A DNA stretch of 64,000 bases from Escherichia phage vB_EcoM_NBG1. The first letter of the stretch is position 1. Each line of letters begins with the position of its first letter. Both the position numbers and the translations under genes were made by a program. The stretch lies in sequence record MH243438.1; one strand, given 5' to 3'. Of the stretch, positions 2,342 to 64,000 are shown one piece after another. The notes under the pieces are model-generated. The model saw nothing but the letters and a program-made list of their open reading frames with translations. It did not search any database and was not told the DNA's origin.

Positions 2342-4658
<2,317 letters not shown>

Positions 4659-12662: not shown

Positions 12663-12686
12663 TCTTAATTGATTAAATCTTATTTT

Positions 12687-18657: not shown

Positions 18658-20172
18658 ATGACAGATATTAAAGTACATTTTCATGATTTTAGCCATGTAA
18701 GAATTGAATGCGACGAAAGCGTGTTCTATGAATTACGCGACTTTTTTAGCTTTGAAGCCGATGGGTACAAATTCAACCCGCGTTACAAATATGGGAACTG
18801 GGATGGTAGAATTAGACTTTTAGATTACAACCGTTTGTTACCATATGGACTTGTAGGACAAATAAAAAAGTTCTGTAGCAATATGAGTTATTCTGTATGG
18901 ATTGACCCTAAAATCTTTGAGACCGAAGACCTTACCAGGGAAGATTTTGACGCATGGCTTTCTAAACAAGAAATTTATTCAGGCAACGCCAAAATCGAAC
19001 CACATTGGTATCAAAAAGATGCAGTATATGAAGGACTAGTTAATCGTCGTCGAATTTTAAACCTTCCGACATCAGCAGGTAAATCACTAATCCAAGCACT
19101 TTTAGCTCGGTATTATCTAGAGAACTATGAAGGTAAAATTCTCATTATCGTCCCTACAACAGCATTGACAACCCAGATGGCTAATGATTTTGTTGATTAT
19201 CGCTTGTTTAGTCATTCGATGATTAAGAAAATTGGCGGTGGTGCTGATAAAGCAGACAAATCTAAAAACGACGCTCCAATTATTGTTGGCACATGGCAAA
19301 CGGTAGTTAAGCAGCCTAAAGAATGGTTCTCTCAGTTCGGTATGATGATGAACGATGAATGCCACTTAGCAACAGGCAAAAGTATTTCTTCAATCATCGC
19401 AGGATTAAATAATTGTATGTTTAAATTCGGTTTATCTGGCTCATTAAGAGACGGAAAGGCCAATGTAATGCAGTACGTAGGTATGTTCGGCGAAATCTTC
19501 CGTCCTGTTAGCACGTCTAAATTAATGGAAGATGGACAGGTAACTGAGCTTAAGATTAATAGTATTTTCCTTCGTTATCCAGACGAATTCGCCACCAAAT
19601 TAAAAGGTAAAACATACCAAGAAGAAGTTAAAATTATTACCGGACTAAAACGACGTACAAAGTGGATTGCTCAACTTTCAGTCAAATTGGCTAAGAAAGA
19701 CGAGAACGCCTTTGTAATGTTTAAACACGTTACACACGGTAAAGAAATATTTGAAGCTATTAAAGAGCTTGGATACGAAAAAGTTTATTACGTATCAGGC
19801 GAAGTTGATACTGAAACACGTAACGCGCTTAAAGTCATGGCAGAAAATGGTAAAGGCATTATTATTGTCGCATCATATGGAGTATTCTCTACCGGTATTT
19901 CAGTCAAGAATCTTCATCATGTTATTTTTGCCCATGGTGTTAAATCAAAAATTATCGTACTTCAAACAGTAGGTCGTGTGCTTCGTAAGCATGGTTCTAA
20001 AGCTGTTGCTACAGTTTGGGATCTCATCGATGACGCAGGTGTAAAACCTAAATCATTAAATACTAAAAAGAAGTATACTCATCTTAATTACTTGTTAAAA
20101 CACGGTATTGATCGTATCCAACGTTACGCTGATGAGAAATTTAACTATGTAATGAAAACAATTAATTTATAA
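18658..20172 (+). CDS. uvsW: UvsW DNA/RNA helicase (SF2)
   Basis: 504 aa; Walker A PTSAGKS and DECH box. Confidence 0.9.
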   Translation: MTDIKVHFHDFSHVRIECDESVFYELRDFFSFEADGYKFNPRYKYGNWDGRIRLLDYNRLLPYGLVGQIKKFCSNMSYSVWIDPKIFETEDLTREDFDAWLSKQEIYSGNAKIEPHWYQKDAVYEGLVNRRRILNLPTSAGKSLIQALLARYYLENYEGKILIIVPTTALTTQMANDFVDYRLFSHSMIKKIGGGADKADKSKNDAPIIVGTWQTVVKQPKEWFSQFGMMMNDECHLATGKSISSIIAGLNNCMFKFGLSGSLRDGKANVMQYVGMFGEIFRPVSTSKLMEDGQVTELKINSIFLRYPDEFATKLKGKTYQEEVKIITGLKRRTKWIAQLSVKLAKKDENAFVMFKHVTHGKEIFEAIKELGYEKVYYVSGEVDTETRNALKVMAENGKGIIIVASYGVFSTGISVKNLHHVIFAHGVKSKIIVLQTVGRVLRKHGSKAVATVWDLIDDAGVKPKSLNTKKKYTHLNYLLKHGIDRIQRYADEKFNYVMKTINL

Positions 20173-21407: not shown

Positions 21408-21803
21408 CACTCTATTGCTTGACGCTAACTGAAGTTTAATTTGTTCAATATCGTCAGGGTTGTCTACGACCGAAAATCTAATCTCTACTATAACCGTATA
21501 GTCATCATATACTGGCGTTACACTTACAGAAAGTTTGTCGATGCGTGGCTCATAGTTACGGACAGCTGCCTGGATATTACGCTCAATCGTATCGGCTGTA
21601 AGTGGTGTCATGTTCTCGAAAAGTTCGTCGACCAAATCACATCCAAATTCAGGGTCGAAGGGGCGTGAGCCTTTTCTAGTTGTCACTATGCCAAGAAGAC
21701 TATTTTTAATAGAACGAAGTCCTACAGAACGAGCAACGTCCTTGTTCCAATCCATACGCATTTCTGGGTCGATATCTGAATAAAGTTTATTGATATTAGA
21801 CAT
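21405..21803 (-). CDS. 25: baseplate wedge protein gp25
   Basis: 132 aa (same as T4 gp25). Confidence 0.85.
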   Translation of the reverse strand: MSNINKLYSDIDPEMRMDWNKDVARSVGLRSIKNSLLGIVTTRKGSRPFDPEFGCDLVDELFENMTPLTADTIERNIQAAVRNYEPRIDKLSVSVTPVYDDYTVIVEIRFSVVDNPDDIEQIKLQLASSNRV

Positions 21804-22429
21804 TATAGTAACTCAAAGAATTCTTTGAGGCCTCGTATTGTGTGAACGTGTGACGCCCCACATTTGGGACATTTAATAGGGGTTGCCAGATAAATCGATG
21901 GCGATACCAAAAGATTTTTAATATTGATCATGTCATCTTCTGTTATAAGGCCGTAAAGGTCGTTTATTTCTGCTTCAGTTAAATCTTCAACAGGGATGGA
22001 CTCTCCATTGACAAAAACGGCCTCAATACATGAAGCAATCATTAATGCGATATTTTTATCGTCAAATAATTTAGGTTGACGGAACTTAATTTTAATACCA
22101 CTAAACGAATACCAGGGATCGGCCTGTTCATCTAATTGAGTGTGCAATAAATTCATATAGACTTGAAATGAATGCCCACAGGAACAATTCCAGGTGTGTT
22201 CTTGATTCACTTCACCTAATGAATGGGCCCACAGATTTACCAACAATAACTCGGCTTCTTGTTTAGTCAAGTTTTTAGCATTAGAGCAATTAGTGATAAT
22301 ATTGTTCACTGCTGATTCAATAGTACCGGTAGCCCGCGCACCTATGAGTCCTAAATATTCTTTTAAAGTAAAGGCTCTACAATTCACTTCTTTATCGCCT
22401 AAACGTACTGTAAACGTATATTTGTACAT
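21803..22429 (-). CDS. 26: baseplate hub protein gp26
   Basis: 208 aa (same as T4 gp26); TAATG-coupled to gene 25. Confidence 0.8.
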   Translation of the reverse strand: MYKYTFTVRLGDKEVNCRAFTLKEYLGLIGARATGTIESAVNNIITNCSNAKNLTKQEAELLLVNLWAHSLGEVNQEHTWNCSCGHSFQVYMNLLHTQLDEQADPWYSFSGIKIKFRQPKLFDDKNIALMIASCIEAVFVNGESIPVEDLTEAEINDLYGLITEDDMINIKNLLVSPSIYLATPIKCPKCGASHVHTIRGLKEFFELL

Positions 22430-44644: not shown

Positions 44645-45052
44645 CTTTTTCTTATGTTGGATATTCCAAGGCGGGTTGAACTTTTTGATAAAAAGTGGTT
44701 CTTCAAGGTCCATTGTTGCGATGGTCATTGAACCAAGTTCGTTGGTGACTGAAAGGTCAAAACATTGGCGGGCCCAGAATTCAACCTTTTTACCTTGCAT
44801 TAAGGCATCCAAAATCATAAGTGATTTTCTTGAATCTGAAGTCTGGTCTTTTCGATTTATGGCTGTTCGATAATAGTTAATGCGTTTCTTTAAATTCTTG
44901 GTTTTACCAATATACACAAGTTCGTCATCTATAGCAATAGCATATATGACATTTTTCTTATTAGGGACATCAACTGTTTTAATTGTTGCATCTTCTAATA
45001 GCTCCAATTCTGTATATTTAATAAAGGAATATTCGGCGGCGATATCTTTCAT
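44642..45052 (-). CDS. denA: endonuclease II (DenA)
   Basis: 136 aa (same as T4); GIY-YIG-like VYIGKTKNLKKRI motif. Confidence 0.85.
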   Translation of the reverse strand: MKDIAAEYSFIKYTELELLEDATIKTVDVPNKKNVIYAIAIDDELVYIGKTKNLKKRINYYRTAINRKDQTSDSRKSLMILDALMQGKKVEFWARQCFDLSVTNELGSMTIATMDLEEPLFIKKFNPPWNIQHKKK

Positions 45053-45060
45053 AATAAAGT

Positions 45061-45074
45061 GGGACCGAAGTCCC
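45061..45074 (-). other. UUCG hairpin (GGGAC-UUCG-GUCCC) between nrdB and denA
   Basis: Inverted repeat read directly; short U-rich stretch follows. Confidence 0.45.
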
Positions 45075-45078
45075 GTCC

Positions 45079-46257
45079 TTAGAAATATTTTTTGTATGAA
45101 TTGATTACATTTTGGTCTACATCATTATCAATTTGTGCGACAAGATAAGAACTGATTTCAACTTCTTGTGGGGCTGCTTGAACCAAATCAGAGTTCAAAT
45201 ACTCACGAATCCATGGAATAGGATGACGAGTTGATACGTCTTTAAGAGGACATGGCAGACCACAACTACGCATACGAGACACGGTAAGATAATCCACAAA
45301 TTCACTTAGGATTTTAACATTTAGACCTGGAAGAGCACCATCTTTAAACAAGTGTTCAGCCCATTCTTTTTCTTGAGCGTTAACTTCCATGAAAATATCA
45401 ACTGCTTCTTGTTCACACTCTTGAGCAATTTTGACCCATTCATCACCGTCTTCGCCATCTTGTAAAGCATGAATAATATATTGAGTGCCCTTGAGGTGGA
45501 GCTGTTCATCACGAGCAATGAACTTCATAATCTTGGCATTACCTTCCATGATTTCCATATTCTTGTGGAAGTTAAAGGTGCATGCGAAAGATACATAAAA
45601 ACGAATAGCTTCTAAGGCATTAATAACGTGCAAACAGAGGTAAAGAGATTTCATTAGCTCACGCTTCCAATATGTCTCATGCTCAATAGCATCTTCAATA
45701 ACGTCTTCGTCTGCATTAATTTCTTTTTGGTATTCGATATCAGCTTTAGCGTTTTCCCAATAACGAGTTTTAATCAGAACATCATCATAATAACGTCCAA
45801 TGGATTCAGCACGTTTCATAATAGCTTCATCTAATACAATCTCATCAAACACCTTCGATGGATCTGTATAAAGATTTCGCATAATATGAGTATATGAACG
45901 AGAGTGAATAGTTTCACTGAAAGTCCATGTAGCAACCCATGTATCTAATGAAGGGTCTGAAAGCAATGACATAAGTACCGCAGATGGTGCTCTACCTTGG
46001 ATAGAATCTAATAATGATTGATACTTAAGGTTGTTGGTAAAGATGTCCTGTTGGAACTGTGGAAGCTTATTAAACTGGGCCGAATCCAACATCAAGTTTA
46101 CTTCCTCGGGACGCCAAAAGAACGAGAGCTGCTTTTCGATAAGCTCTTCAAAAACTTTATGACGCTGAATATCATACCGTGCGAGGCCAAGACCAGAACC
46201 AAAGAACATCGGTTCATTCAAAACATCGACTTGTTGTGTGTTAAAAACTGTACTCAT
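45079..46257 (-). CDS. nrdB: ribonucleotide reductase small subunit NrdB, uninterrupted
   Basis: ATG at 46257 (MSTVFNT... as in T4; track start is an upstream GTG); continuous ORF with no intron. Confidence 0.9.
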   Translation of the reverse strand: MSTVFNTQQVDVLNEPMFFGSGLGLARYDIQRHKVFEELIEKQLSFFWRPEEVNLMLDSAQFNKLPQFQQDIFTNNLKYQSLLDSIQGRAPSAVLMSLLSDPSLDTWVATWTFSETIHSRSYTHIMRNLYTDPSKVFDEIVLDEAIMKRAESIGRYYDDVLIKTRYWENAKADIEYQKEINADEDVIEDAIEHETYWKRELMKSLYLCLHVINALEAIRFYVSFACTFNFHKNMEIMEGNAKIMKFIARDEQLHLKGTQYIIHALQDGEDGDEWVKIAQECEQEAVDIFMEVNAQEKEWAEHLFKDGALPGLNVKILSEFVDYLTVSRMRSCGLPCPLKDVSTRHPIPWIREYLNSDLVQAAPQEVEISSYLVAQIDNDVDQNVINSYKKYF

Positions 46258-54660: not shown

Positions 54661-54668
54661 TATAAATA
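54661..54668 (+). promoter_or_regulatory. late promoter TATAAATA for gene 34
   Basis: Exact octamer 30 nt upstream of gene 34 ATG. Confidence 0.6.
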
Positions 54669-54698: not shown

Positions 54699-57600
54699 AT
54701 GGCCGACATCAAACGTAAGTTCAGAGCCGAAGACGGTCTGGACGCCGGTGGCGACAAGATTGTTAACGTAGCATTAGCCGACCGTACAGTAGGTACTGAT
54801 GGCGTAAACGTTGACTTCCTGGTACAAGAAAACACCGTTCAAGTATATGATTCTACGCGTGGATATAACAAAGGATTTGTTGTTCTTTATGACAATCGTT
54901 TATATCAAGCAATAAATGATATCGTGTCTCCTTCCGGGGCATTTAACCTTTTACAATGGCGTGCAGTTCGTACTGATGCACAATGGATAACTGTAGCTTC
55001 TGGGACTTATCAACTTTCTTCAGGTGAATCGATTTCTGTTAACACTGGTGCCGGCAATGATATGGTTTTCACGTTGCCGAATACGCCGGTTGATGGCGAT
55101 ACTGTTGTTTTGGCTGATATTGGTGGAAGAACCGGGACAGTTAAAGTACAGATTAACGCGTCTGTGCAGAGTATTTTAAACTTTAGAGGTGAACAAGTTC
55201 GTACAGTTTTAATGACGCGCCCACGTTCACAACTATTGTTTGTGTTTAGTAATCGTTTGTGGCAGATGTATATTACCGATTATGGTAAAGAATCAATCAC
55301 TGTTACACCTGCGACACCATATCAAGCACAAGCAAATGATTTTATCGTTCGTCGTTTTACTAGTGCAGCACCAATCAACATTACACTTCCACGTAATGCT
55401 AACAATGGTGATATAATCAGCCTAGTCGATTTAGATAAATTAAACCCACTGTATCATACAATTGTTAAAACATTTGATGATACAACGTCTATTGGTGAAG
55501 TCGGGACTCATATTGCCGAAGGCAGAAATGACTCTGACGCGTTTTTTGTTTTTGATGCTGCAAGTAGTTTATGGCGTATATGGGAAGGCGACCAGAAATC
55601 GCGTCTTCGTATTATCCGTGCGGATTCAAATATTCGACCAAATGAAGAAGTTCTTATTTTTGGCACAAATAACGCTACAACCGGAACTATTAATCTTACG
55701 CTGCCTACAGGAATTTTGAGTGGTGACACTGTTAAAATTTCAATGAACTACATGCGTAAAGGCCAAACAGTAAAAATTAAAGCTGCCGAAGGTGATACAA
55801 TTGCTTCTTCTGTCGCATTACTTCAGTTCCCTAAACGTTCTGAATATCCACCTGATGCTCAATGGGTCTCTGTTACTGAACTAGAATTCAATGGCACTAC
55901 TTCATATGTTCCTGTATTAGAATTAGCGTATATCGAAGACACCGATTCTGACACTCATTATTGGGTTGTGCAACAGAATGTCCCTACGGTAGAACGTGTC
56001 GATGCTGGAACTGATGCTACACGAGCTCGTTTAGGTGTTATTGCTCTTGCTACTCAAGCGCAAGCAAATGTTGATTTAGAGAATACTCCAGCTAAAGAAG
56101 TGGCTATTACTCCTGAAACATTGGCAAATCGTACAGCAACTGAAGCTCGACGTGGTATCGCTAAAATTGCTACAACAGCACAAGTTAACCAGAATTCCAC
56201 AGCATCATTTGTGGACGATACTATTGTTACGCCTAAAAAACTAAATGAGCGTACAGCAACTGAAACTCGTCGCGGTCTTGCTGAAATTGCTACTCAGGCT
56301 GAAACAGATGCTGGTCTTGATGACACAACGATTATTACACCTAAGAAATTGCAGGCACGTCAGGGCTCTGAAACACTGTCCGGTATAGTTAAATATGTAT
56401 CAACTACTTCTGCTACTCCGGCTGCATCTCGTGGAACTGCAGGTACTAATGTTTATAATAAAGACACAACCACGTTAACTATTTCTCCTAAAGCCCTTGA
56501 CCAATATAAAGCAACTTATGCTCAACAAGGTGCAGTAATTTTAGCTGTTGATAGTGAAGTAATTGCTGGTCAATCTCAAGCAGGTTATTCTCACGCTGTA
56601 GTAACTCCTGAAACACTACATAAGAAAACTTCTACTGATGGACGTATTGGTTTAATTGAAATTGCTACGCAAGCAGAAACTAATGCTGGGACTGATTATA
56701 CACGTGCAGTAACGCCTAAGACGTTAAATGATAGGAGAGCGACGGAAGGATTATCCGGCATAGCCGAACTTGCTACGCAAGTCGAATTTGATACTGGAAC
56801 TGATGATACTCGTATCTCGACTCCACTGAAAATTAAAACTCATTTTGATTCTTCTGACCGTACCAGTGTTAATTCTGATTCCGGACTTATTGAAGAAGGA
56901 ACCTTGTGGAACCATTATACTCTTGATATTTCTAAAGCAAATGAAACACAACGTGGTACACTTCGCGTAGCGACCCAGGCAGAATCTAATGCAGGAACTT
57001 TAGATGATGTTCTTATTACTCCTAAAAAGCTTTTAGGGACTAAGTCCACTGAAACGTCTGAAGGTGTAATCAAGGTTGCTACTCGGGCTGAAACTGTAAC
57101 AGGAACTTCTGCTAATACAGCTGTATCGCCTAAGAATTTAAAATGGATTGTCCAGTCTGAACCAACATGGGCTGCTACTACGGCGATAAGAGGTTTTGTT
57201 AAAACTTCATCCGGTTCAATTACGTTCGTTGGTAATGATACAGTCGGTTCAACACAACCTTTAGAATCATATGAAAAAAATAGCTATGCTATATCTCCAT
57301 ATGAATTAAACCGTGTACTTGCTAACTATTTGCCATTGAAAGCTAAAGCCGTAGATAGTAATTTATTAGATGGCCTAGATTCATCTCAGTTCATTCGTAG
57401 GGACATTGCACAGACGGTTAATGGTTCACTAACCTTAACCCAACAAACGAATCTGAGTGCCCCTCTTGTATCATCTAGTACTGCTACGTTTGGTGGGTCA
57501 GTTTCGGCAAATAGTACATTAACTATTTCTAACTCCGGAACAGCTACTCGTCTGATTTTTGAAAAAGGACCTCAAACTGGAACTAATCCAGCACAGACGA

Positions 57601-58574
57601 TGACTATCAGAGTTTGGGGAAATCAGTTTGGTGGCGGATCAGATACAACACGTTCTACTGTATTTGAAGTTGGTGATGAAACGTCTAATCATTTTTATTC
57701 TCAACGTAATAAAGATGGGAATATAGCGTTTAGCATTAGTGGTACTGTGATGCCAATAAACATTAATGCTTCCGGTTTGATGAATGTTAATGGCGTTGCA
57801 ACATTCGGTCGTTCAGTTACTGCTAATGGCGAATTCATTAGTAAGTCTGCAAATGCTTTCAGAGCAATTAGTGGTGATTACGGATTCTTTATTCGTAATG
57901 ACGCTGCTAATACCTATTTTATGCTCACTGCATCAGGCGATCAGACCGGCGGATTTAACGGATTACGTCCTTTAGCTATTAATAATGCATCCGGCCAAGT
58001 AACGATTGGTGAAGGCTTAATCATTGCCAAAGGTGCTACTATAAATTCAGGTGGTTTGACTGTTAACTCTAGAATTCGTTCTCAGGGTAATAAAACATCT
58101 GATTTATATACCCGTGCGCCAACATCTGATAATGTAGGATTCTGGTCAATTGATATTAACGATTCAGCCACTTATAACCAGTTCCCAGGTTATTTTAAAA
58201 TGGTTGAAAAAACTAATGAAGTGACTGGGCTTCCATACTTAGAACGTGGCGAAGAAGTTAAATCTCCTGGTACATTGACTCAGTTTGGTAACACACTTGA
58301 TTCACTTTACCAAGATTGGATTACTTATCCAACAACCCCAGAAGCACGTACAACCCGTTGGACACGTACATGGCAGAAAACTAAAAATTCTTGGTCAAGT
58401 TTTGTTCAGGTGTTTGATGGCGGAAACCCTCCTCAACCTTCTGATATTGGCGCTTTACCTTCTGATAATGCAACAATCGGAAACTTGACAATAAGGGATT
58501 TCTTAAGGATTGGTAATGTCCGCATTATTCCAGACCCTGTGAATAAATCTGTTAAATTCGAGTGGATTGAATAA
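54699..58574 (+). CDS. 34: long tail fibre proximal subunit gp34
   Basis: 1291 aa; N-terminus MADIKRKFRAEDGLDAGGDKIVNVALAD. Confidence 0.9.
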   Translation: MADIKRKFRAEDGLDAGGDKIVNVALADRTVGTDGVNVDFLVQENTVQVYDSTRGYNKGFVVLYDNRLYQAINDIVSPSGAFNLLQWRAVRTDAQWITVASGTYQLSSGESISVNTGAGNDMVFTLPNTPVDGDTVVLADIGGRTGTVKVQINASVQSILNFRGEQVRTVLMTRPRSQLLFVFSNRLWQMYITDYGKESITVTPATPYQAQANDFIVRRFTSAAPINITLPRNANNGDIISLVDLDKLNPLYHTIVKTFDDTTSIGEVGTHIAEGRNDSDAFFVFDAASSLWRIWEGDQKSRLRIIRADSNIRPNEEVLIFGTNNATTGTINLTLPTGILSGDTVKISMNYMRKGQTVKIKAAEGDTIASSVALLQFPKRSEYPPDAQWVSVTELEFNGTTSYVPVLELAYIEDTDSDTHYWVVQQNVPTVERVDAGTDATRARLGVIALATQAQANVDLENTPAKEVAITPETLANRTATEARRGIAKIATTAQVNQNSTASFVDDTIVTPKKLNERTATETRRGLAEIATQAETDAGLDDTTIITPKKLQARQGSETLSGIVKYVSTTSATPAASRGTAGTNVYNKDTTTLTISPKALDQYKATYAQQGAVILAVDSEVIAGQSQAGYSHAVVTPETLHKKTSTDGRIGLIEIATQAETNAGTDYTRAVTPKTLNDRRATEGLSGIAELATQVEFDTGTDDTRISTPLKIKTHFDSSDRTSVNSDSGLIEEGTLWNHYTLDISKANETQRGTLRVATQAESNAGTLDDVLITPKKLLGTKSTETSEGVIKVATRAETVTGTSANTAVSPKNLKWIVQSEPTWAATTAIRGFVKTSSGSITFVGNDTVGSTQPLESYEKNSYAISPYELNRVLANYLPLKAKAVDSNLLDGLDSSQFIRRDIAQTVNGSLTLTQQTNLSAPLVSSSTATFGGSVSANSTLTISNSGTATRLIFEKGPQTGTNPAQTMTIRVWGNQFGGGSDTTRSTVFEVGDETSNHFYSQRNKDGNIAFSISGTVMPININASGLMNVNGVATFGRSVTANGEFISKSANAFRAISGDYGFFIRNDAANTYFMLTASGDQTGGFNGLRPLAINNASGQVTIGEGLIIAKGATINSGGLTVNSRIRSQGNKTSDLYTRAPTSDNVGFWSIDINDSATYNQFPGYFKMVEKTNEVTGLPYLERGEEVKSPGTLTQFGNTLDSLYQDWITYPTTPEARTTRWTRTWQKTKNSWSSFVQVFDGGNPPQPSDIGALPSDNATIGNLTIRDFLRIGNVRIIPDPVNKSVKFEWIE

Positions 58575-58582
58575 GAGGTATT

Positions 58583-59710
58583 ATGGAAAAATTTATGGCT
58601 AAGTTTGGACAAGGATACGTCCAAACGCCATTTTTATCGGAAAGCAATTCAGTACGATTTAAATTAAGCATAGCGGGCTCTTGTCCGCTATCAACATCTC
58701 CTGCTTATATTAAGTTTCAAGATAATCCACTTGGGTCTCAGGTTTTTTCCGTTGGATTAAACGTTCGTGTAATAAATCCTACAACAGGTGCAGTAGTTGA
58801 ATCTAAGACATATAATTTCTCTACTGAAAACGACGCCACGTCAAGTGCATTTGTTACTTTCATGGACACATATGCTTCAAATTTTATATTTGCTCTTGTT
58901 ACTAACGCTAAAACAAACTTTCCACCTGAAGTTCTTGCATGGTTTACTAAAGCTGGGAGTTCTGCTATTCCATTAGCTCAACAAGTTTTAAATATAGTGG
59001 ACATTTCTTATTCTGCATTTTATATTTCTGGTAAGAATGCTATAGCACTAGAACATATTAAGTATAGTAATAAGAAAACTTCAACCGACTATAGTACACC
59101 ACTTGATGTTGTGTATGACACTATCGATGATATTGGTGCTACCGGCTTCCCTAGACGTACGTATGAATCGTCAGACACATTTTTATCTGCCATTGGAGGT
59201 ACTAATAATGAAATTAAAAGGATGCCTACAACATCCATTATTACACCTCTCGCTGGGTATAAATTGAAGCCTGGAGATTTCCTTTATATGAAATTCCAAC
59301 TAATGGCCGATGCTGATTTGTTAGCACAAGGGACGACACGACTTTCTATTCGTTTCTTTAAATCTCCTTCTACTTCACCTATTTCATTTAAGGATATAAA
59401 CTTTGACGGGGGTGCAGGTGAATGGAAGATATATGAAGACTACATAGAAATTCCTTCTGGTGCTGACGGGTTCACGATTTATTGTTATCGTACAGCTCCA
59501 GTCGGGCAAGGTGGATTAAGAAACGTTATATTCACTGAAGTATCATGTAATGGAAGCGTTTCAAAACCTGCTGAGTTTGGTATAAATGGTATTCGTGTAA
59601 ATTATGTTTCAGAATCTTTAAGTGCTCCAGACATAATGACATTACCTACTCAATCTTCAACTGATACTGGTAAGGTATTTGGACAAGAATTTAAAGAAGC
59701 ATCAGAATAA
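58583..59710 (+). CDS. 35: long tail fibre hinge protein gp35
   Basis: 375 aa; N-terminus MEKFMAKFGQGYVQTPFLSESNSVR as in T4 gp35. Confidence 0.9.
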   Translation: MEKFMAKFGQGYVQTPFLSESNSVRFKLSIAGSCPLSTSPAYIKFQDNPLGSQVFSVGLNVRVINPTTGAVVESKTYNFSTENDATSSAFVTFMDTYASNFIFALVTNAKTNFPPEVLAWFTKAGSSAIPLAQQVLNIVDISYSAFYISGKNAIALEHIKYSNKKTSTDYSTPLDVVYDTIDDIGATGFPRRTYESSDTFLSAIGGTNNEIKRMPTTSIITPLAGYKLKPGDFLYMKFQLMADADLLAQGTTRLSIRFFKSPSTSPISFKDINFDGGAGEWKIYEDYIEIPSGADGFTIYCYRTAPVGQGGLRNVIFTEVSCNGSVSKPAEFGINGIRVNYVSESLSAPDIMTLPTQSSTDTGKVFGQEFKEASE

Positions 59711-59715
59711 ATTTA

Positions 59716-59739
59716 GGGAGACTTCGGTCTCCCATTTTT
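59716..59739 (+). terminator. terminator GGGAGAC-UUCG-GUCUCCC plus AUUUUUG after gene 35
   Basis: Same 18-nt hairpin as after gene 23. Confidence 0.75.
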
Positions 59740-59740
59740 G

Positions 59741-59748
59741 TATAAATA
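59741..59748 (+). promoter_or_regulatory. late promoter TATAAATA for gene 36
   Basis: Exact octamer 24 nt upstream of gene 36 ATG; AAGGAGA RBS. Confidence 0.6.
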
Positions 59749-59772
59749 TGGTATACATATAAGGAGACAACT

Positions 59773-60438
59773 ATGGCCGATTTAAAAGCTGGTAGTACAA
59801 CTGGCGGTGCTGTCATATGGCATCAAGGTAATTTCCCTTTAATGCCAGCAGGTGATGACGTCCTGTATAAAACGTTTAAACTCTATTCAGAATATAATAA
59901 ACCACAAGCTGCTGATAACGATTTCGTTTCTAAAGCTAATGGTGGTACTTACGCTTCAAAGGTAACATTTAACAGTGGCGTGCAAATACCATATGCTATA
60001 AACAATACAAACCAAAGCGGTATTTTTCCTGGTAACGGTGATGCAGCTACTTTTGTTACAGCAAATATTGATATTGTTTCATGGTACGGTATTGGTTTTA
60101 AATCATCACAAGGAACAGCTGGTAGAACTGTAGTAATCAATACACGTAATGGTGATATTAATACAAAAGGCGTTGTGTCGGCAGCTGGTCAAGTAAGAAG
60201 CGATATGACTGCTCCGGTTGCAGCAAATGATCTCACAAGAAAAGATTATGTTGATGGAAGAATAAATATTGTTACGGATAACGCAAATTCCCGTGTATTG
60301 CGTTCTGGCGATACCATGACTGGTACTTTAACAGCACCAAACTTTTTCTCACAGAATCCGGCGTCTGAGGCTAATCATGTTCCTCGTTTCGACCAGATTG
60401 TAATTAAAGATTCTGTTCAAGATTTCGGCTATTATTAA
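59773..60438 (+). CDS. 36: long tail fibre distal connector gp36
   Basis: 221 aa (same as T4 gp36). Confidence 0.85.
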
Positions 60439-60446
60439 GAGGACTT

Positions 60447-63400
60447 ATGGCTACATTAAAACAGATACAATTTAAAAGAAGCAAAGTAGCAGGAGTTAAT
60501 CCTACTGCAGCACAATTAGCCGAAGGCGAATTAGCGATAAACTTAAAAGATCGAACTCTTTTTACCAAAGATGACCTCGGTAATATTATTAGCCTAGGCT
60601 TTGCTAAGGGCGGGGATATTAACGGTAATGTAACTCATGTAGGTAACTATACTCAGACAGGTACATTTAATTTAATAGGCTCACAAAATGTTGCATCTGG
60701 TGGATATATCGAATTTGCTTATAAGGCCACCGGAGTTGGTTCTTGGGCTGGTCAACACACGGCAAAAGCCCCTATTTTCATGGATATTTCCGCATCAACC
60801 GCTACTTCAGAATATAACCCGTTAATTAAGCAACGTTATAAAGATGGTACTTTCTCATTAGGGACCTTAGTTAATGAAGGCTCAATGAAGATGCATTATA
60901 TTGATGAAACAGGCACTTCGAAATATTGGACCTTTAACCGTAATGGTAATTTTCAAGTTGATTCCGGAAATTTATTAGTAGCTAATGGATATTTAGTTAC
61001 TCAAAGTAATATTGAAACTAAAGCTGGTTCTTTAATTGGTCCTAAAGTTATTACCAAAAATATCAATGTGAGCACTAAATCTTGGGACACTAATATTGAT
61101 ACTGCATATGATTTAGTTTCATTACCGACTTGGCAGTATACTCCAACCGAAACGGATTTGGATACTAATGGTATAAACTACCTTCGTAAATTCCGCGGAC
61201 ATGTTTCTTCTGCTATTTTCCATGAAATTGCTGATGCTCGTTCAGGTAAACCACAGAATATTTCATATTGGACTGGACGCAATGCTGAAGTTTATCAATG
61301 GTCTTATACCACCGACGGGCGTATGTCTGTTGCTAATTCGATAGGTGTAGGTCTTGCCGATGTCGGCTCCCAAGGGCGTTATCCTTTGGCAACATTTGGT
61401 AAAGGTATTGCAATTGGTGATAATGACACTGGTGTTAAATGGGTTCGTGACGGTGTTATTGATTTGGTTGCTAATGGCATTTCGGCGGGTACAATAAACA
61501 GCAATGGTATTAACAGTACTAAAAAATTGATGGTTGGTTATAGCCGTGATTCCGGAACTACATGGGATTACCCAAATAACAACCAAGCAATGTTTACTGC
61601 GCGTACCGATGTTGATGGTAATAATAATGGTGATGGTCAAACTCATATCGGTTATAGCAGTAATTCTAAAATGTATCACTATTTCCGTGGCACGGGTCGT
61701 ATGTCCATTAGTATGGGTGATGGGCTTCTTGTTGAGCCTGGCATTTTAGATATTAAAACCGGTTCAAATTCGTTAAATTTGCGTGCTGATGGTACCATCG
61801 CTTCTGTTCAAACATTAAAACTTAATAATGGATTATATTTTAATGGTGATGGAACTAATGCTTCTCTAGTTTTTAAAGCAGCTTCAGGTATTGATGGCAC
61901 TAAGCAAATTTTGTGGGAAGGCGGTACTCGTGCTGGTCAGAATAAAAGCTATGTAACTGTTAAAGCATGGGGTAATTCATTTAACGCATCTGGCGATCGT
62001 AATCGTGAAACGGTTTTTGAAGTATCAGATGGGCAAGGATATTATTTTTATTCACAGCGTGTGGCTCCAAGTGGCTCTGAAACTACTGGGCCTGTTGTAA
62101 CGCAGTTCAATGGACAAGTTAATGCTAGAGGAAGTATTATTACTGACGGAAGTTTTAAAGTTAATGGATTAAGCACTTTAAATGGTGCAGTTACCATGAG
62201 CAATGGACTTAATTTAACAGGCGGTTCTTCTATCACAGGTCAAGTTAAAATTGGTGGAACAGCCGATGCATTAAGAATTTGGGATGCTGAATATGGTGCT
62301 ATTTTCCGTCGTTCTGAAGATAAATTTTATATAATTCCGACCCCAAAGGACGCTGGCGGAACTGGTGGTATTTCCAACCTTCGTCCATTTACCATGACTC
62401 TTAGTACTGGTAAAATGGAATTTAAACATGATGTTGGACTTGGTGATAACGGCTCCGGCGGAAGCATATTATTTGTAGATAACACTAACAAAGCCACTAC
62501 TAATAATGGTCGTTTATACGTTAATATGTCAAGTGATGCTATAGTGCTTAATGCTCCTACACAAGAAACATCTAACTTTATCCAAGGACGCAAAGCTAAC
62601 GTCACTAAATGGTATGTTGGTATTGGCGACAGCGGTGATTCTGTTCGTATGCATAGTTATGCATATTCCCACGGCTTGGTATTAAGTGCTAACTCCGTTG
62701 ATATTACTAAACCTCTTAAAGTCGGAAATGCTCAATTCGGTACTGATGGTAATATCACCGGTGGTTCTGGTAATTTTGCTAACTTGAATACCACAATAAA
62801 TAACCTTAAGACAGATATTGTCTCAAGTTATCCTATTGGTGCTCCGATTCCTTGGCCTACTGATACACCTCCTGAAGGTTATGCCATAATGGAAGGTCAA
62901 ACTTTTGATGTTGGCTTGTATCCTAAGTTAGCGGCGGTGTATCCTTCCGGCGCTCTGCCTGATATGCGTGGTCAAACTATCAAGGGTAAACCGAGTGGTC
63001 GTGCAGTGTTGAGTGCAGAAGCTGATGGTGTTAAGTCACATAGCCATAGTGCAAGTGCATCAAGCACAGATTTGGGTACTAAGACCACTTCTAGTTTTGA
63101 TTACGGTACTAAAACATCTTCAAGCTTTGATTATGGTACTAAGACCAGTAATACCACTGGCAACCATAACCATACAGTGAGTGGTAATACTGGTTCCGCT
63201 GGTGCGCACCAACACGCACGTTCAGGCCCTCAGATACAAGGCGGCGTACCCACTAGCATATTCTATGATGGATACAATAGTGCGGGACCAAACTTCAACG
63301 CTAAAATCACTGGATCCGTGAGCGGTGCTACTGCATCGTCGAATATGGCCAAAACTTCTTCAGATGGTGCCCACACTCATAGTTGGTCAGGAACTACAAG

Positions 63401-63584
63401 TACCACAGGTAACCATGCCCACACCGTTGGTATTGGTGCCCATACACATACTGTAGGTATTGGTGCCCACTCTCATTCGGTAGCGATTGGTTCTCATGGC
63501 CATACTATCACTGTAAATAGTACAGGTAATACAGAAAACACGGTTAAAAACATTGCTTTTAACTATATCGTTCGTTTAGCATAA
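60447..63584 (+). CDS. 37: long tail fibre distal subunit gp37 (receptor-binding tip)
   Basis: 1045 aa; C-terminal cluster of HxH motifs and a short tandem repeat ([10 protein letters not shown]). Confidence 0.9.
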
Positions 63585-63590
63585 GGAGAA

Positions 63591-63610
63591 GGGACTTCGG
63601 TCCCTTTTTA
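63591..63610 (+). terminator. hairpin GGGAC-UUCG-GUCCC plus UUUUUA after gene 37, inside the gene 38 initiation region
   Basis: Lies between the AAGGAG (63583-63588) and the gene 38 ATG (63615). Confidence 0.6.
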
Positions 63611-63614
63611 TAAT

Positions 63615-64000
63615 ATGAAACTCTATCATTATTATTTTGACACTAAAGAATTTTACAAAGAAGAAAATTATAAACCATTAAAAGGCGTAGGATTTCCGGC
63701 TCATTCGACACCAAAAAAACCTTTAGACCCTAAAGAAGGCTATGCTGTTGTATTTGATGAACGCGAACAAGAATGGGTATATGTTGAAGACCATCGTGGA
63801 AAAACAGTATGGACTTATGATAAGCAAAAAATTGTTATTGACACTCCAGGTGCTCTTCAAAATGTTACTACAGAAGAACCTGGTGAATTTGACATTTGGA
63901 CCGACGACGGGTGGAAGGAAGATGAAGCATATAAACGTGTAGTTCAACGTGATAAGAAAATTCATGAACTCTATAAATTATTCAGTGTTTTAAGTTCTCT
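63615..64000 (+). CDS. 38: tail fibre assembly chaperone gp38, 3'-truncated at window edge
   Basis: Hand-translated MKLYHYYFDTKEFYKEENYKPLKG..., open to the window end; matches the T4-type gp38 N-terminus. Confidence 0.75.
   Translation, partial: MKLYHYYFDTKEFYKEENYKPLKGVGFPAHSTPKKPLDPKEGYAVVFDEREQEWVYVEDHRGKTVWTYDKQKIVIDTPGALQNVTTEEPGEFDIWTDDGWKEDEAYKRVVQRDKKIHELYKLFSVLSS

Follow-up and report, generated by a model that had tools for sequence, protein, structure and literature searches.

The junction between genes 37 and 38 in Escherichia phage vB_EcoM_NBG1 (MH243438.1), a Mosigvirus-like T-even phage, probably has a split (noncontiguous) translation initiation region orthologous to that of T4 gene 38, in which a hairpin lies between the Shine-Dalgarno (SD) sequence and the start codon. 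The window, which is the whole stretch of DNA analysed here, is 64,000 nt long and contains the junction close to its end. Read as the orthologue of an element described in T4, the gene 38 element is already known from that phage, and the finding opens no new question. The comparison does indicate that this textbook hairpin-bridged ribosome binding site (RBS) is kept in other T-even genera with its folded geometry preserved, which lends the model modest comparative support. That ribosomes use the folded geometry at gene 38 of this phage, we infer from the T4 literature on genes 38 and 25.

Anatomy and predicted fold of the gene 37/38 junction

The first 20 kb of the window share 98.6% identity with Escherichia phage p000y and 98.0-98.3% with Mosigvirus records, and the end of the window falls in the tail-fibre gene block. 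There, open reading frames (ORFs) of 1291, 375, 221, and 1045 aa at 54699-63584 fit genes 34, 35, 36, and 37 by size and order. Gene 37, the 1045 aa ORF at 60447..63584 (+ strand), encodes the distal long tail fibre subunit and includes Pfam gp37_trimer and Collar domains. It is followed on the same strand by the 5' part of gene 38 (63615..64000), which encodes a T4-type tail fibre assembly chaperone and leaves the window at its end. The 128 aa of the gene 38 product in the window share 71% identity with T4 gp38 (E = 3e-57) and 99-100% identity with gp38 of many coliphages. Altogether, the gp37 Pfam domains, the gp38 identity, and the alignment with T4 (below) make the junction orthologous in position: the gene 37 stop, then a T4-type gene 38.

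The stop codon UAA of gene 37 (63582-63584) shares bases with the gene 38 SD sequence AAGGAG (63583..63588), and 26 nt (63589-63614) separate this SD from the A of the gene 38 AUG (63615-63617). The gap includes the core hairpin GGGAC-UUCG-GUCCC (63591..63604), which consists of 5 bp (arms 63591-63595 and 63600-63604) and a UUCG tetraloop (63596-63599). Its CUUCGG motif (63595-63600) joins the tetraloop to a C-G closing pair on a GC-rich, intergenic stem. The GC stem is followed by a run of five U (63605..63609), which gives it the look of an intrinsic terminator, and then by AUAAU. Re-reading the window confirmed that the initial annotation had placed the SD, the hairpin, and the AUG exactly. 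It had also called AAGGAG the only good SD, 26 nt upstream, and indeed there is no nearer one: the 10 nt before the gene 38 AUG (UUUUUAUAAU) contain no SD-like purine run. These 10 nt and the first codons of the gene are A/U-rich and weakly structured. An alternative in-frame start with a conventional SD, which the annotation had named as evidence that would speak against a split region, was looked for and is not present; no ATG, GTG, or TTG occurs in frame between the gene 37 TAA and the gene 38 ATG (codons GGA GAA GGG ACT TCG GTC CCT TTT TAT AAT). The AAGG at 63589-92 was considered as a conventional second SD and rejected for its position in the 5' arm of the stem, at a distance of 22 nt from the AUG. 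The 68 other ORFs of the window were scanned for SDs in a crude way: in most, the best SD is 3-10 nt away from the start, and the other clear outlier was the gp25 homologue, with a good SD about 26 nt away.

The gene 37/38 hairpin is beyond chance. The minimum free energy (MFE) of a 51-nt segment spanning the junction is -15.7 kcal/mol, at a z-score of -3.0, and of 200 dinucleotide shuffles not one folded equally well. With the SD and AUG held single-stranded, the hairpin is predicted to lie wholly inside the spacer between them, as a 7-bp stem at 63589..63606 (-10.7 kcal/mol). The RNA folding check proposed in the initial annotation has thus been run, and it predicts a stable hairpin between SD and AUG. 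The claim that this hairpin gives a functional spacing holds for the 7-bp form and not for the 14-nt core that had been named: removing the core alone leaves 12 nt before the AUG, and two further A-U pairs (63589/63606 and 63590/63605) bring the gap to 8 nt, so these two flanking pairs matter. The effective spacer that then remains, from the folded hairpin to the start codon, is UUUAUAAU (63607..63614). We define a split region as one with its SD more than about 15 nt from the start, no SD at a normal distance, and an enclosed hairpin that leaves a folded gap of about 5-9 nt; the gene 38 region has its hairpin enclosed between SD and AUG and a gap of 26 nt on linear RNA and 8 nt when folded.

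In free RNA, the stem is predicted to extend to 10 bp (63586..63609) by outer G·U and A-U pairs. This extension pairs GAG, the last three bases of the SD, and would cost about 3.6 kcal/mol to open. Because it masks part of the SD, the modelled structure could also reduce gene 38 initiation. The MFE folds of both the window and T4 include a further outer helix, CAUA/UAUG, which pairs the start codon. PhiZZ30 (CAUG) and TH58 (CCUA) break its pairing without compensation, and we therefore do not count this helix among the conserved features.

If the element works as proposed for T4, initiation at gene 38 would proceed as follows. Genes 36, 37, and 38 would be carried on one late mRNA, on which the gene 38 AUG would be 26 nt from the AAGGAG that shares bases with the gene 37 stop, too far for this SD to be of use on linear RNA. 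The very stable C(UUCG)G hairpin would take 18 nt out of the path and, folding fast and stably, would therefore leave about 8 nt between the upstream SD and the AUG. The 30S subunit could then hold the SD with the AUG in the P site and the hairpin looped out. The hairpin itself would be a gene-end element that has come to sit inside a tight junction. The overlap of stop and SD in UAAGGAG is compatible both with de novo initiation and with restart after translation of gene 37.

The T4 counterpart and conservation among relatives

The T4 gene 38 RBS is described as split by a hairpin in two reviews (PMC3014915 and PMC7297116, citing Gold 1988), where the spacing is given as 22 nt, folded to 5 nt. 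Even there, the role of the hairpin at gene 38 only "was suggested," and the mutational proof cited is for gene 25. The initial annotation had held that a split region described for T4 gene 38 is conserved in the window, and comparison with the T4 leader bears this out through the reviews, the alignment, and the 71% gp38 identity. The T4 junction reads UAAGGAG-AGGGGC-UUCG-GCCCU-UCUAAAU-AUG and aligns base for base with the window. The two share the gene 37 stop/gene 38 junction itself, the UAAGGAG overlap, a C(UUCG)G hairpin that follows the SD directly, a short A/U-rich tail (5-8 nt) leading up to the AUG, and a homologous downstream protein. They differ in the gap (26 nt in the window; 22 nt in the T4 reference sequence; 23 nt in most T4-group phages, T4 GT7 included) and in the stem, which is GGGAC/GUCCC in the window versus GGGGC/GCCCC, with one more A-U pair here. 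The tail also differs (UUUUUAUAAU here versus UUCUAAAU in T4), and the window has an added terminator-like U run.

The T4 reference has GCCC in the 3' arm (locus positions 4638-4641), and its 22-nt spacer is the number that appears in the reviews. Every other T4-group junction that was read, those of T4 GT7 and phage TuIb among them, has GCCCC or an equally long match, with 23 nt. The shorter arm of the T4 reference could reflect a difference between strains, or an old compression error.

T4 gene 25 is also called a split RBS in PMC7297116 (Nivinskas 1999), and direct mutational and probing evidence for it is cited in PMC3014915 (Nivinskas et al. 1999; Malys and Nivinskas 2009). The gene 26-25 junction works on the same principle, with an SD 27 nt upstream and an intervening hairpin that brings it to a functional distance. 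It differs from gene 38 in its unrelated sequence, its A/U-rich stem without a UUCG tetraloop, and the position of its SD, which falls within the coding region upstream, clear of the stop codon there. The window also encodes a gp25 homologue (132 aa, Pfam GPW_gp25), and at 21803-21850 (- strand) GAGG precedes the AUG at 21803 by 26 nt with the hairpin CUCAAAGAAUUCUUUGAG between them. Judged by its sequence, this element is the known T4 gene 26-25 split RBS, conserved here.

The gene 37/38 junction is present in 208 phage records, among them members of Tequatrovirus, Mosigvirus, Gaprivervirus, and Dhakavirus. For comparison, we used 25 phage records picked across the identity range, together with two IMG/VR contigs and four metagenome contigs. 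The overlapping stop and SD, UAAGGAG, are unchanged in all 30 related junctions, and the hairpin directly adjoins the SD in every variant. These junctions include 14 distinct spacers, with linear SD-AUG gaps of 22-27 nt; once the stem is excluded, the spacing is 6-9 nt in every one (26 computed at first, with the metagenome contigs added). That the folded spacing stays constant across insertions and deletions suggests selection on geometry.

Six core stem pairs are intact in all 14 spacer variants. The pair next to the loop-closing pair is G-C in nine variants (the T4 group), G·U in one (KAW3E185 and phage 55), and A-U in four (the window's group), a series that is, as the alignment stands, a compensatory change through a wobble intermediate. 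The loop occurs in five forms (UUCG, UUCU, UUAU, UUAG, and GUUA), and the tail 5' of the AUG varies as well (UUCUAAAU, UUCUGAAU, UUUAAUU, and UUUUUAUAAU). Since the loop and tail vary and the core pairs stay, substitutions collect outside the stem. The relatives are close, with a mean column identity of 85%, so conservation of the SD and stem is of limited weight, and the gene 38 stem has one truly covarying pair only. Stem conservation is therefore supportive of the model without being strong, the phages being near kin.

The invariance of UAAGGAG bears on whether the distant SD matters at all. The AUG at 63615 might instead be used in an S1-dependent, SD-independent manner through the A/U-rich UUUUUAUAAU, with the AAGGAG hexamer as a by-product of the stop context. 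The A/U-rich, weakly structured surroundings of the AUG would suit such initiation, and AAGGAG is not enriched in the window, with 10 copies on the + strand versus about 13 expected (an estimate from base composition). However, all 30 junctions keep UAAGGAG unchanged and vary in the AUG-proximal tail, no variant separates the hairpin from the SD, and the denA junction (below) has the same architecture with UAAGG(A/C). The T4 literature (PMC3014915 and PMC7297116) likewise gives the SD a role. We therefore consider an irrelevant SD very improbable.

Wider scans added few loci. In IMG/VR, a gp38 fragment matched two loci and a degenerate gene 38 start pattern matched one; a metagenome scan anchored on the junction flanks yielded four loci and no spacer variant beyond those already known. 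No Rfam family reached its gathering score in the window, and the surroundings of the junction gave chance-level matches only (E at least 0.37).

Some relatives have mosaic junctions. The gp38 proteins of JK45, JM17, and F2 are 91-96% identical to that of the window, yet their junction is of the T4 type (23 nt, GGGGC/GCCCC, UUCUAAAU), and slur08 combines a T4-type stem with a window-type U5-AUAAU tail. These junctions imply recombination within or beside the hairpin. Genes 37 and 38 are in the same frame in the window, with 33 nt from stop to start, and we considered a gp37-gp38 read-through fusion; it was rejected because relatives have spacers of 22, 24, 25, and 27 nt, in which the frame relation is lost.

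Automated annotation mishandles gene 37/38 junctions. The record of one relative puts a 3-nt "RBS" in the 3' arm of the hairpin, and another annotates the hairpin as a terminator. In E. coli O157 typing phage 6 (locus 344-363), a UUAU loop and an extra U create an in-frame AUG in the hairpin, 9 nt after the SD, and the record annotates gene 38 from this loop AUG.

Late transcription, termination, and hairpins at gene ends

Near the tail-fibre genes, exact matches to the late-promoter consensus TATAAATA occur on the + strand at 54661 and 59741 only. The latter (59741..59748), upstream of gene 36, is the last exact match before gene 38, with none between 59741 and 63615. Sites with one mismatch are found inside gene 37, for example TGTAAATA at 63512, and could conceivably act as weak promoters; none is exact. 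By this measure, genes 36, 37, and 38 appear to form a single late transcription unit. Gene 38, having no promoter of its own, would then be transcribed through the hairpin by read-through, which excludes an efficient terminator. In T4, gp38 is needed for fibre assembly. A required product encoded downstream without its own promoter likewise means that termination at the hairpin cannot be efficient.

The hairpin was labelled the gene 37 terminator in the initial annotation, and in outline it resembles intrinsic (Rho-independent) terminators, with its GC-rich stem and the U run behind it. It differs from them in its short stem, in having only five U, which end just 5 nt before the gene 38 AUG, in the absence of that run from the T4 group, and in a downstream gene that needs read-through. 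The U5 run is restricted to the window's lineage, and the T4 group has UUCU or UUUU-G in its place. By a rough terminator formula, the window variant scores marginally positive and the T4 group negative. The record of a related phage carries an ARNOLD terminator annotation on the hairpin (-11.2), and a consensus terminator scan of the window does not list the hairpin, probably because the stem absorbs the U run. Our literature search for terminators of T4 late transcripts found nothing relevant. Of the terminator label, then, at most partial termination stands; efficient termination is excluded by the missing gene 38 promoter, and the U5 run is lineage-specific.

The hairpin is also one of a class. 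C(UUCG)G hairpins were found in T4 mRNA in 1988, according to a later summary (PMC4371310), and those of the window share with them the same very stable tetraloop, the C-G closing pair, and a location between genes. The window includes ten such hairpins with at least 5 bp, versus 0.37 expected in shuffles, at 12686, 16058(-), 20170, 31257(-), 35588(-), 36530(-), 45074(-), 51411(-), 59716, and 63586, with stems of 5-10 bp. Relative to the stop codon of an ORF on their own strand, all ten begin between -3 and +23 nt, and half of them have the stem GGGAGAC/GUCUCCC. Most are not between an SD and an AUG; in the window, only the gene 38 and denA copies are. Where the next gene is no more than 11 nt from the hairpin, the SD comes after the hairpin at 20170 and 35588 and before it at 45074 (denA) and 63586 (gene 38). 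At the gene 35/36 junction (59716-59775), a hairpin, a late promoter, and a conventional RBS are arranged in series: GGGAGAC-UUCG-GUCUCCC and AUUUUU are followed by TATAAATA at 59741, UAAGGAG at 59760, and ATG at 59773.

With members of its class at ten gene ends, the gene 38 hairpin may have a primary role other than in translation, and the pattern at all ten sites makes leaky termination or 3'-end protection plausible; either is possible for this hairpin. The hairpin could thus be primarily a generic element of gene ends, acting as a leaky intrinsic terminator, as a shield of the gene 37 message against 3'-5' exonucleases, or as both, with the SD-AUG geometry a tolerated by-product rather than an enhancer of translation. 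Besides the excess of hairpins near same-strand stops, this explanation draws on the gene 35 hairpin that precedes a late promoter, on the even split of SD positions in tight junctions (twice after the hairpin, twice before), on the ARNOLD annotation in a relative, and on the GC stem with U5 in the window, with its marginally positive rough score. Against this, the U run is not conserved, with the UUCU of the T4 group scoring negative, and the terminator scan of the window omits the hairpin. The lack of a gene 38 promoter, with gp38 needed in T4, leaves no room for efficient termination, and a folded spacing of 6-9 nt is kept across insertions and deletions. We regard a primarily gene-end function as a real possibility, though not the expected one; it overlaps with the split-RBS explanation and is compatible with it.

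Both activities might also be combined in a two-in-one attenuator, in which the U5 hairpin would end some late transcripts and build the gene 38 ribosome site on the rest, and such a module might be a general coupling device of T-even phages. We think this unlikely; were it true, the gp37:gp38 ratio would be set at two levels.

A similar arrangement at the nrdB/denA junction

The design of the gene 37/38 junction recurs at nrdB/denA (45050-45085, - strand). The UAA (45081-79) overlaps AAGGA, and the spacer consists of a GGGAC-UUCG-GUCCC hairpin identical over its 14 nt to that of gene 38 and then the 8 nt ACUUUAUU before the AUG at 45052. The denA ORF of the window encodes a 136-aa GIY-YIG endonuclease.

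The nrdB/denA region is matched by 852 records. In six of six sequences compared, from five genera, UAAGG is followed by a hairpin and, 6-8 nt past the stem, by an AUG, and the SD-like motif, UAAGG(A/C), overlaps the stop in these six sequences. The stem is GGGCC-GCAA-GGCCC in T4 (Tequatrovirus), GAGGGC-UUUG-GCCCUC in Citrobacter NM4.3 (Moonvirus), GGGCC-UUCG-GGCCC in Entb_43 (Karamvirus), and GGGGC-UUCG-GCCCC in phiA85 (Jiaodavirus), so that the stems include several compensatory changes across the five genera. Altogether, this suggests that nrdB/denA is likely a third split RBS, and one with real covariation. We found no published description of a split design at nrdB/denA in our search, the older literature lying outside it. 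The recurrence here of the module of stop/SD overlap, tetraloop hairpin, 6-8 nt, and AUG is the reason that it could be a general T-even coupling device.

The stop/SD overlaps at both junctions raise the question of whether gene 38 is translated mainly by termination-reinitiation. Ribosomes that finish gene 37 would be kept by the overlapping SD and would restart 30 nt downstream once the hairpin refolds; if so, the chaperone gp38 would be made beside its client gp37. The UAAGGAG overlap in 30 of 30 gene 37/38 junctions, the UAAGG overlap at nrdB/denA in all six sequences from five genera, and the lack of a promoter or processing signal belonging to gene 38 count in favour of such coupling. 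However, stop/SD overlaps are frequent in tightly packed phage genomes and need not imply coupling, and the split-RBS model accounts for the same features. Reinitiation as the main route is doubtful in our view, and we retain the split initiation region as the preferred reading of the gene 38 element.

The comparison also touches the annotated start of denA. In the T4 RefSeq record (NC_000866), denA starts at a GUG right after the SD (locus positions 3450-3452, - strand), giving a product of 144 aa. The window has no GUG at this place, and the AUG 24 nt further downstream (136 aa) is common to six of six sequences; therefore, the RefSeq start of T4 denA is probably wrong.
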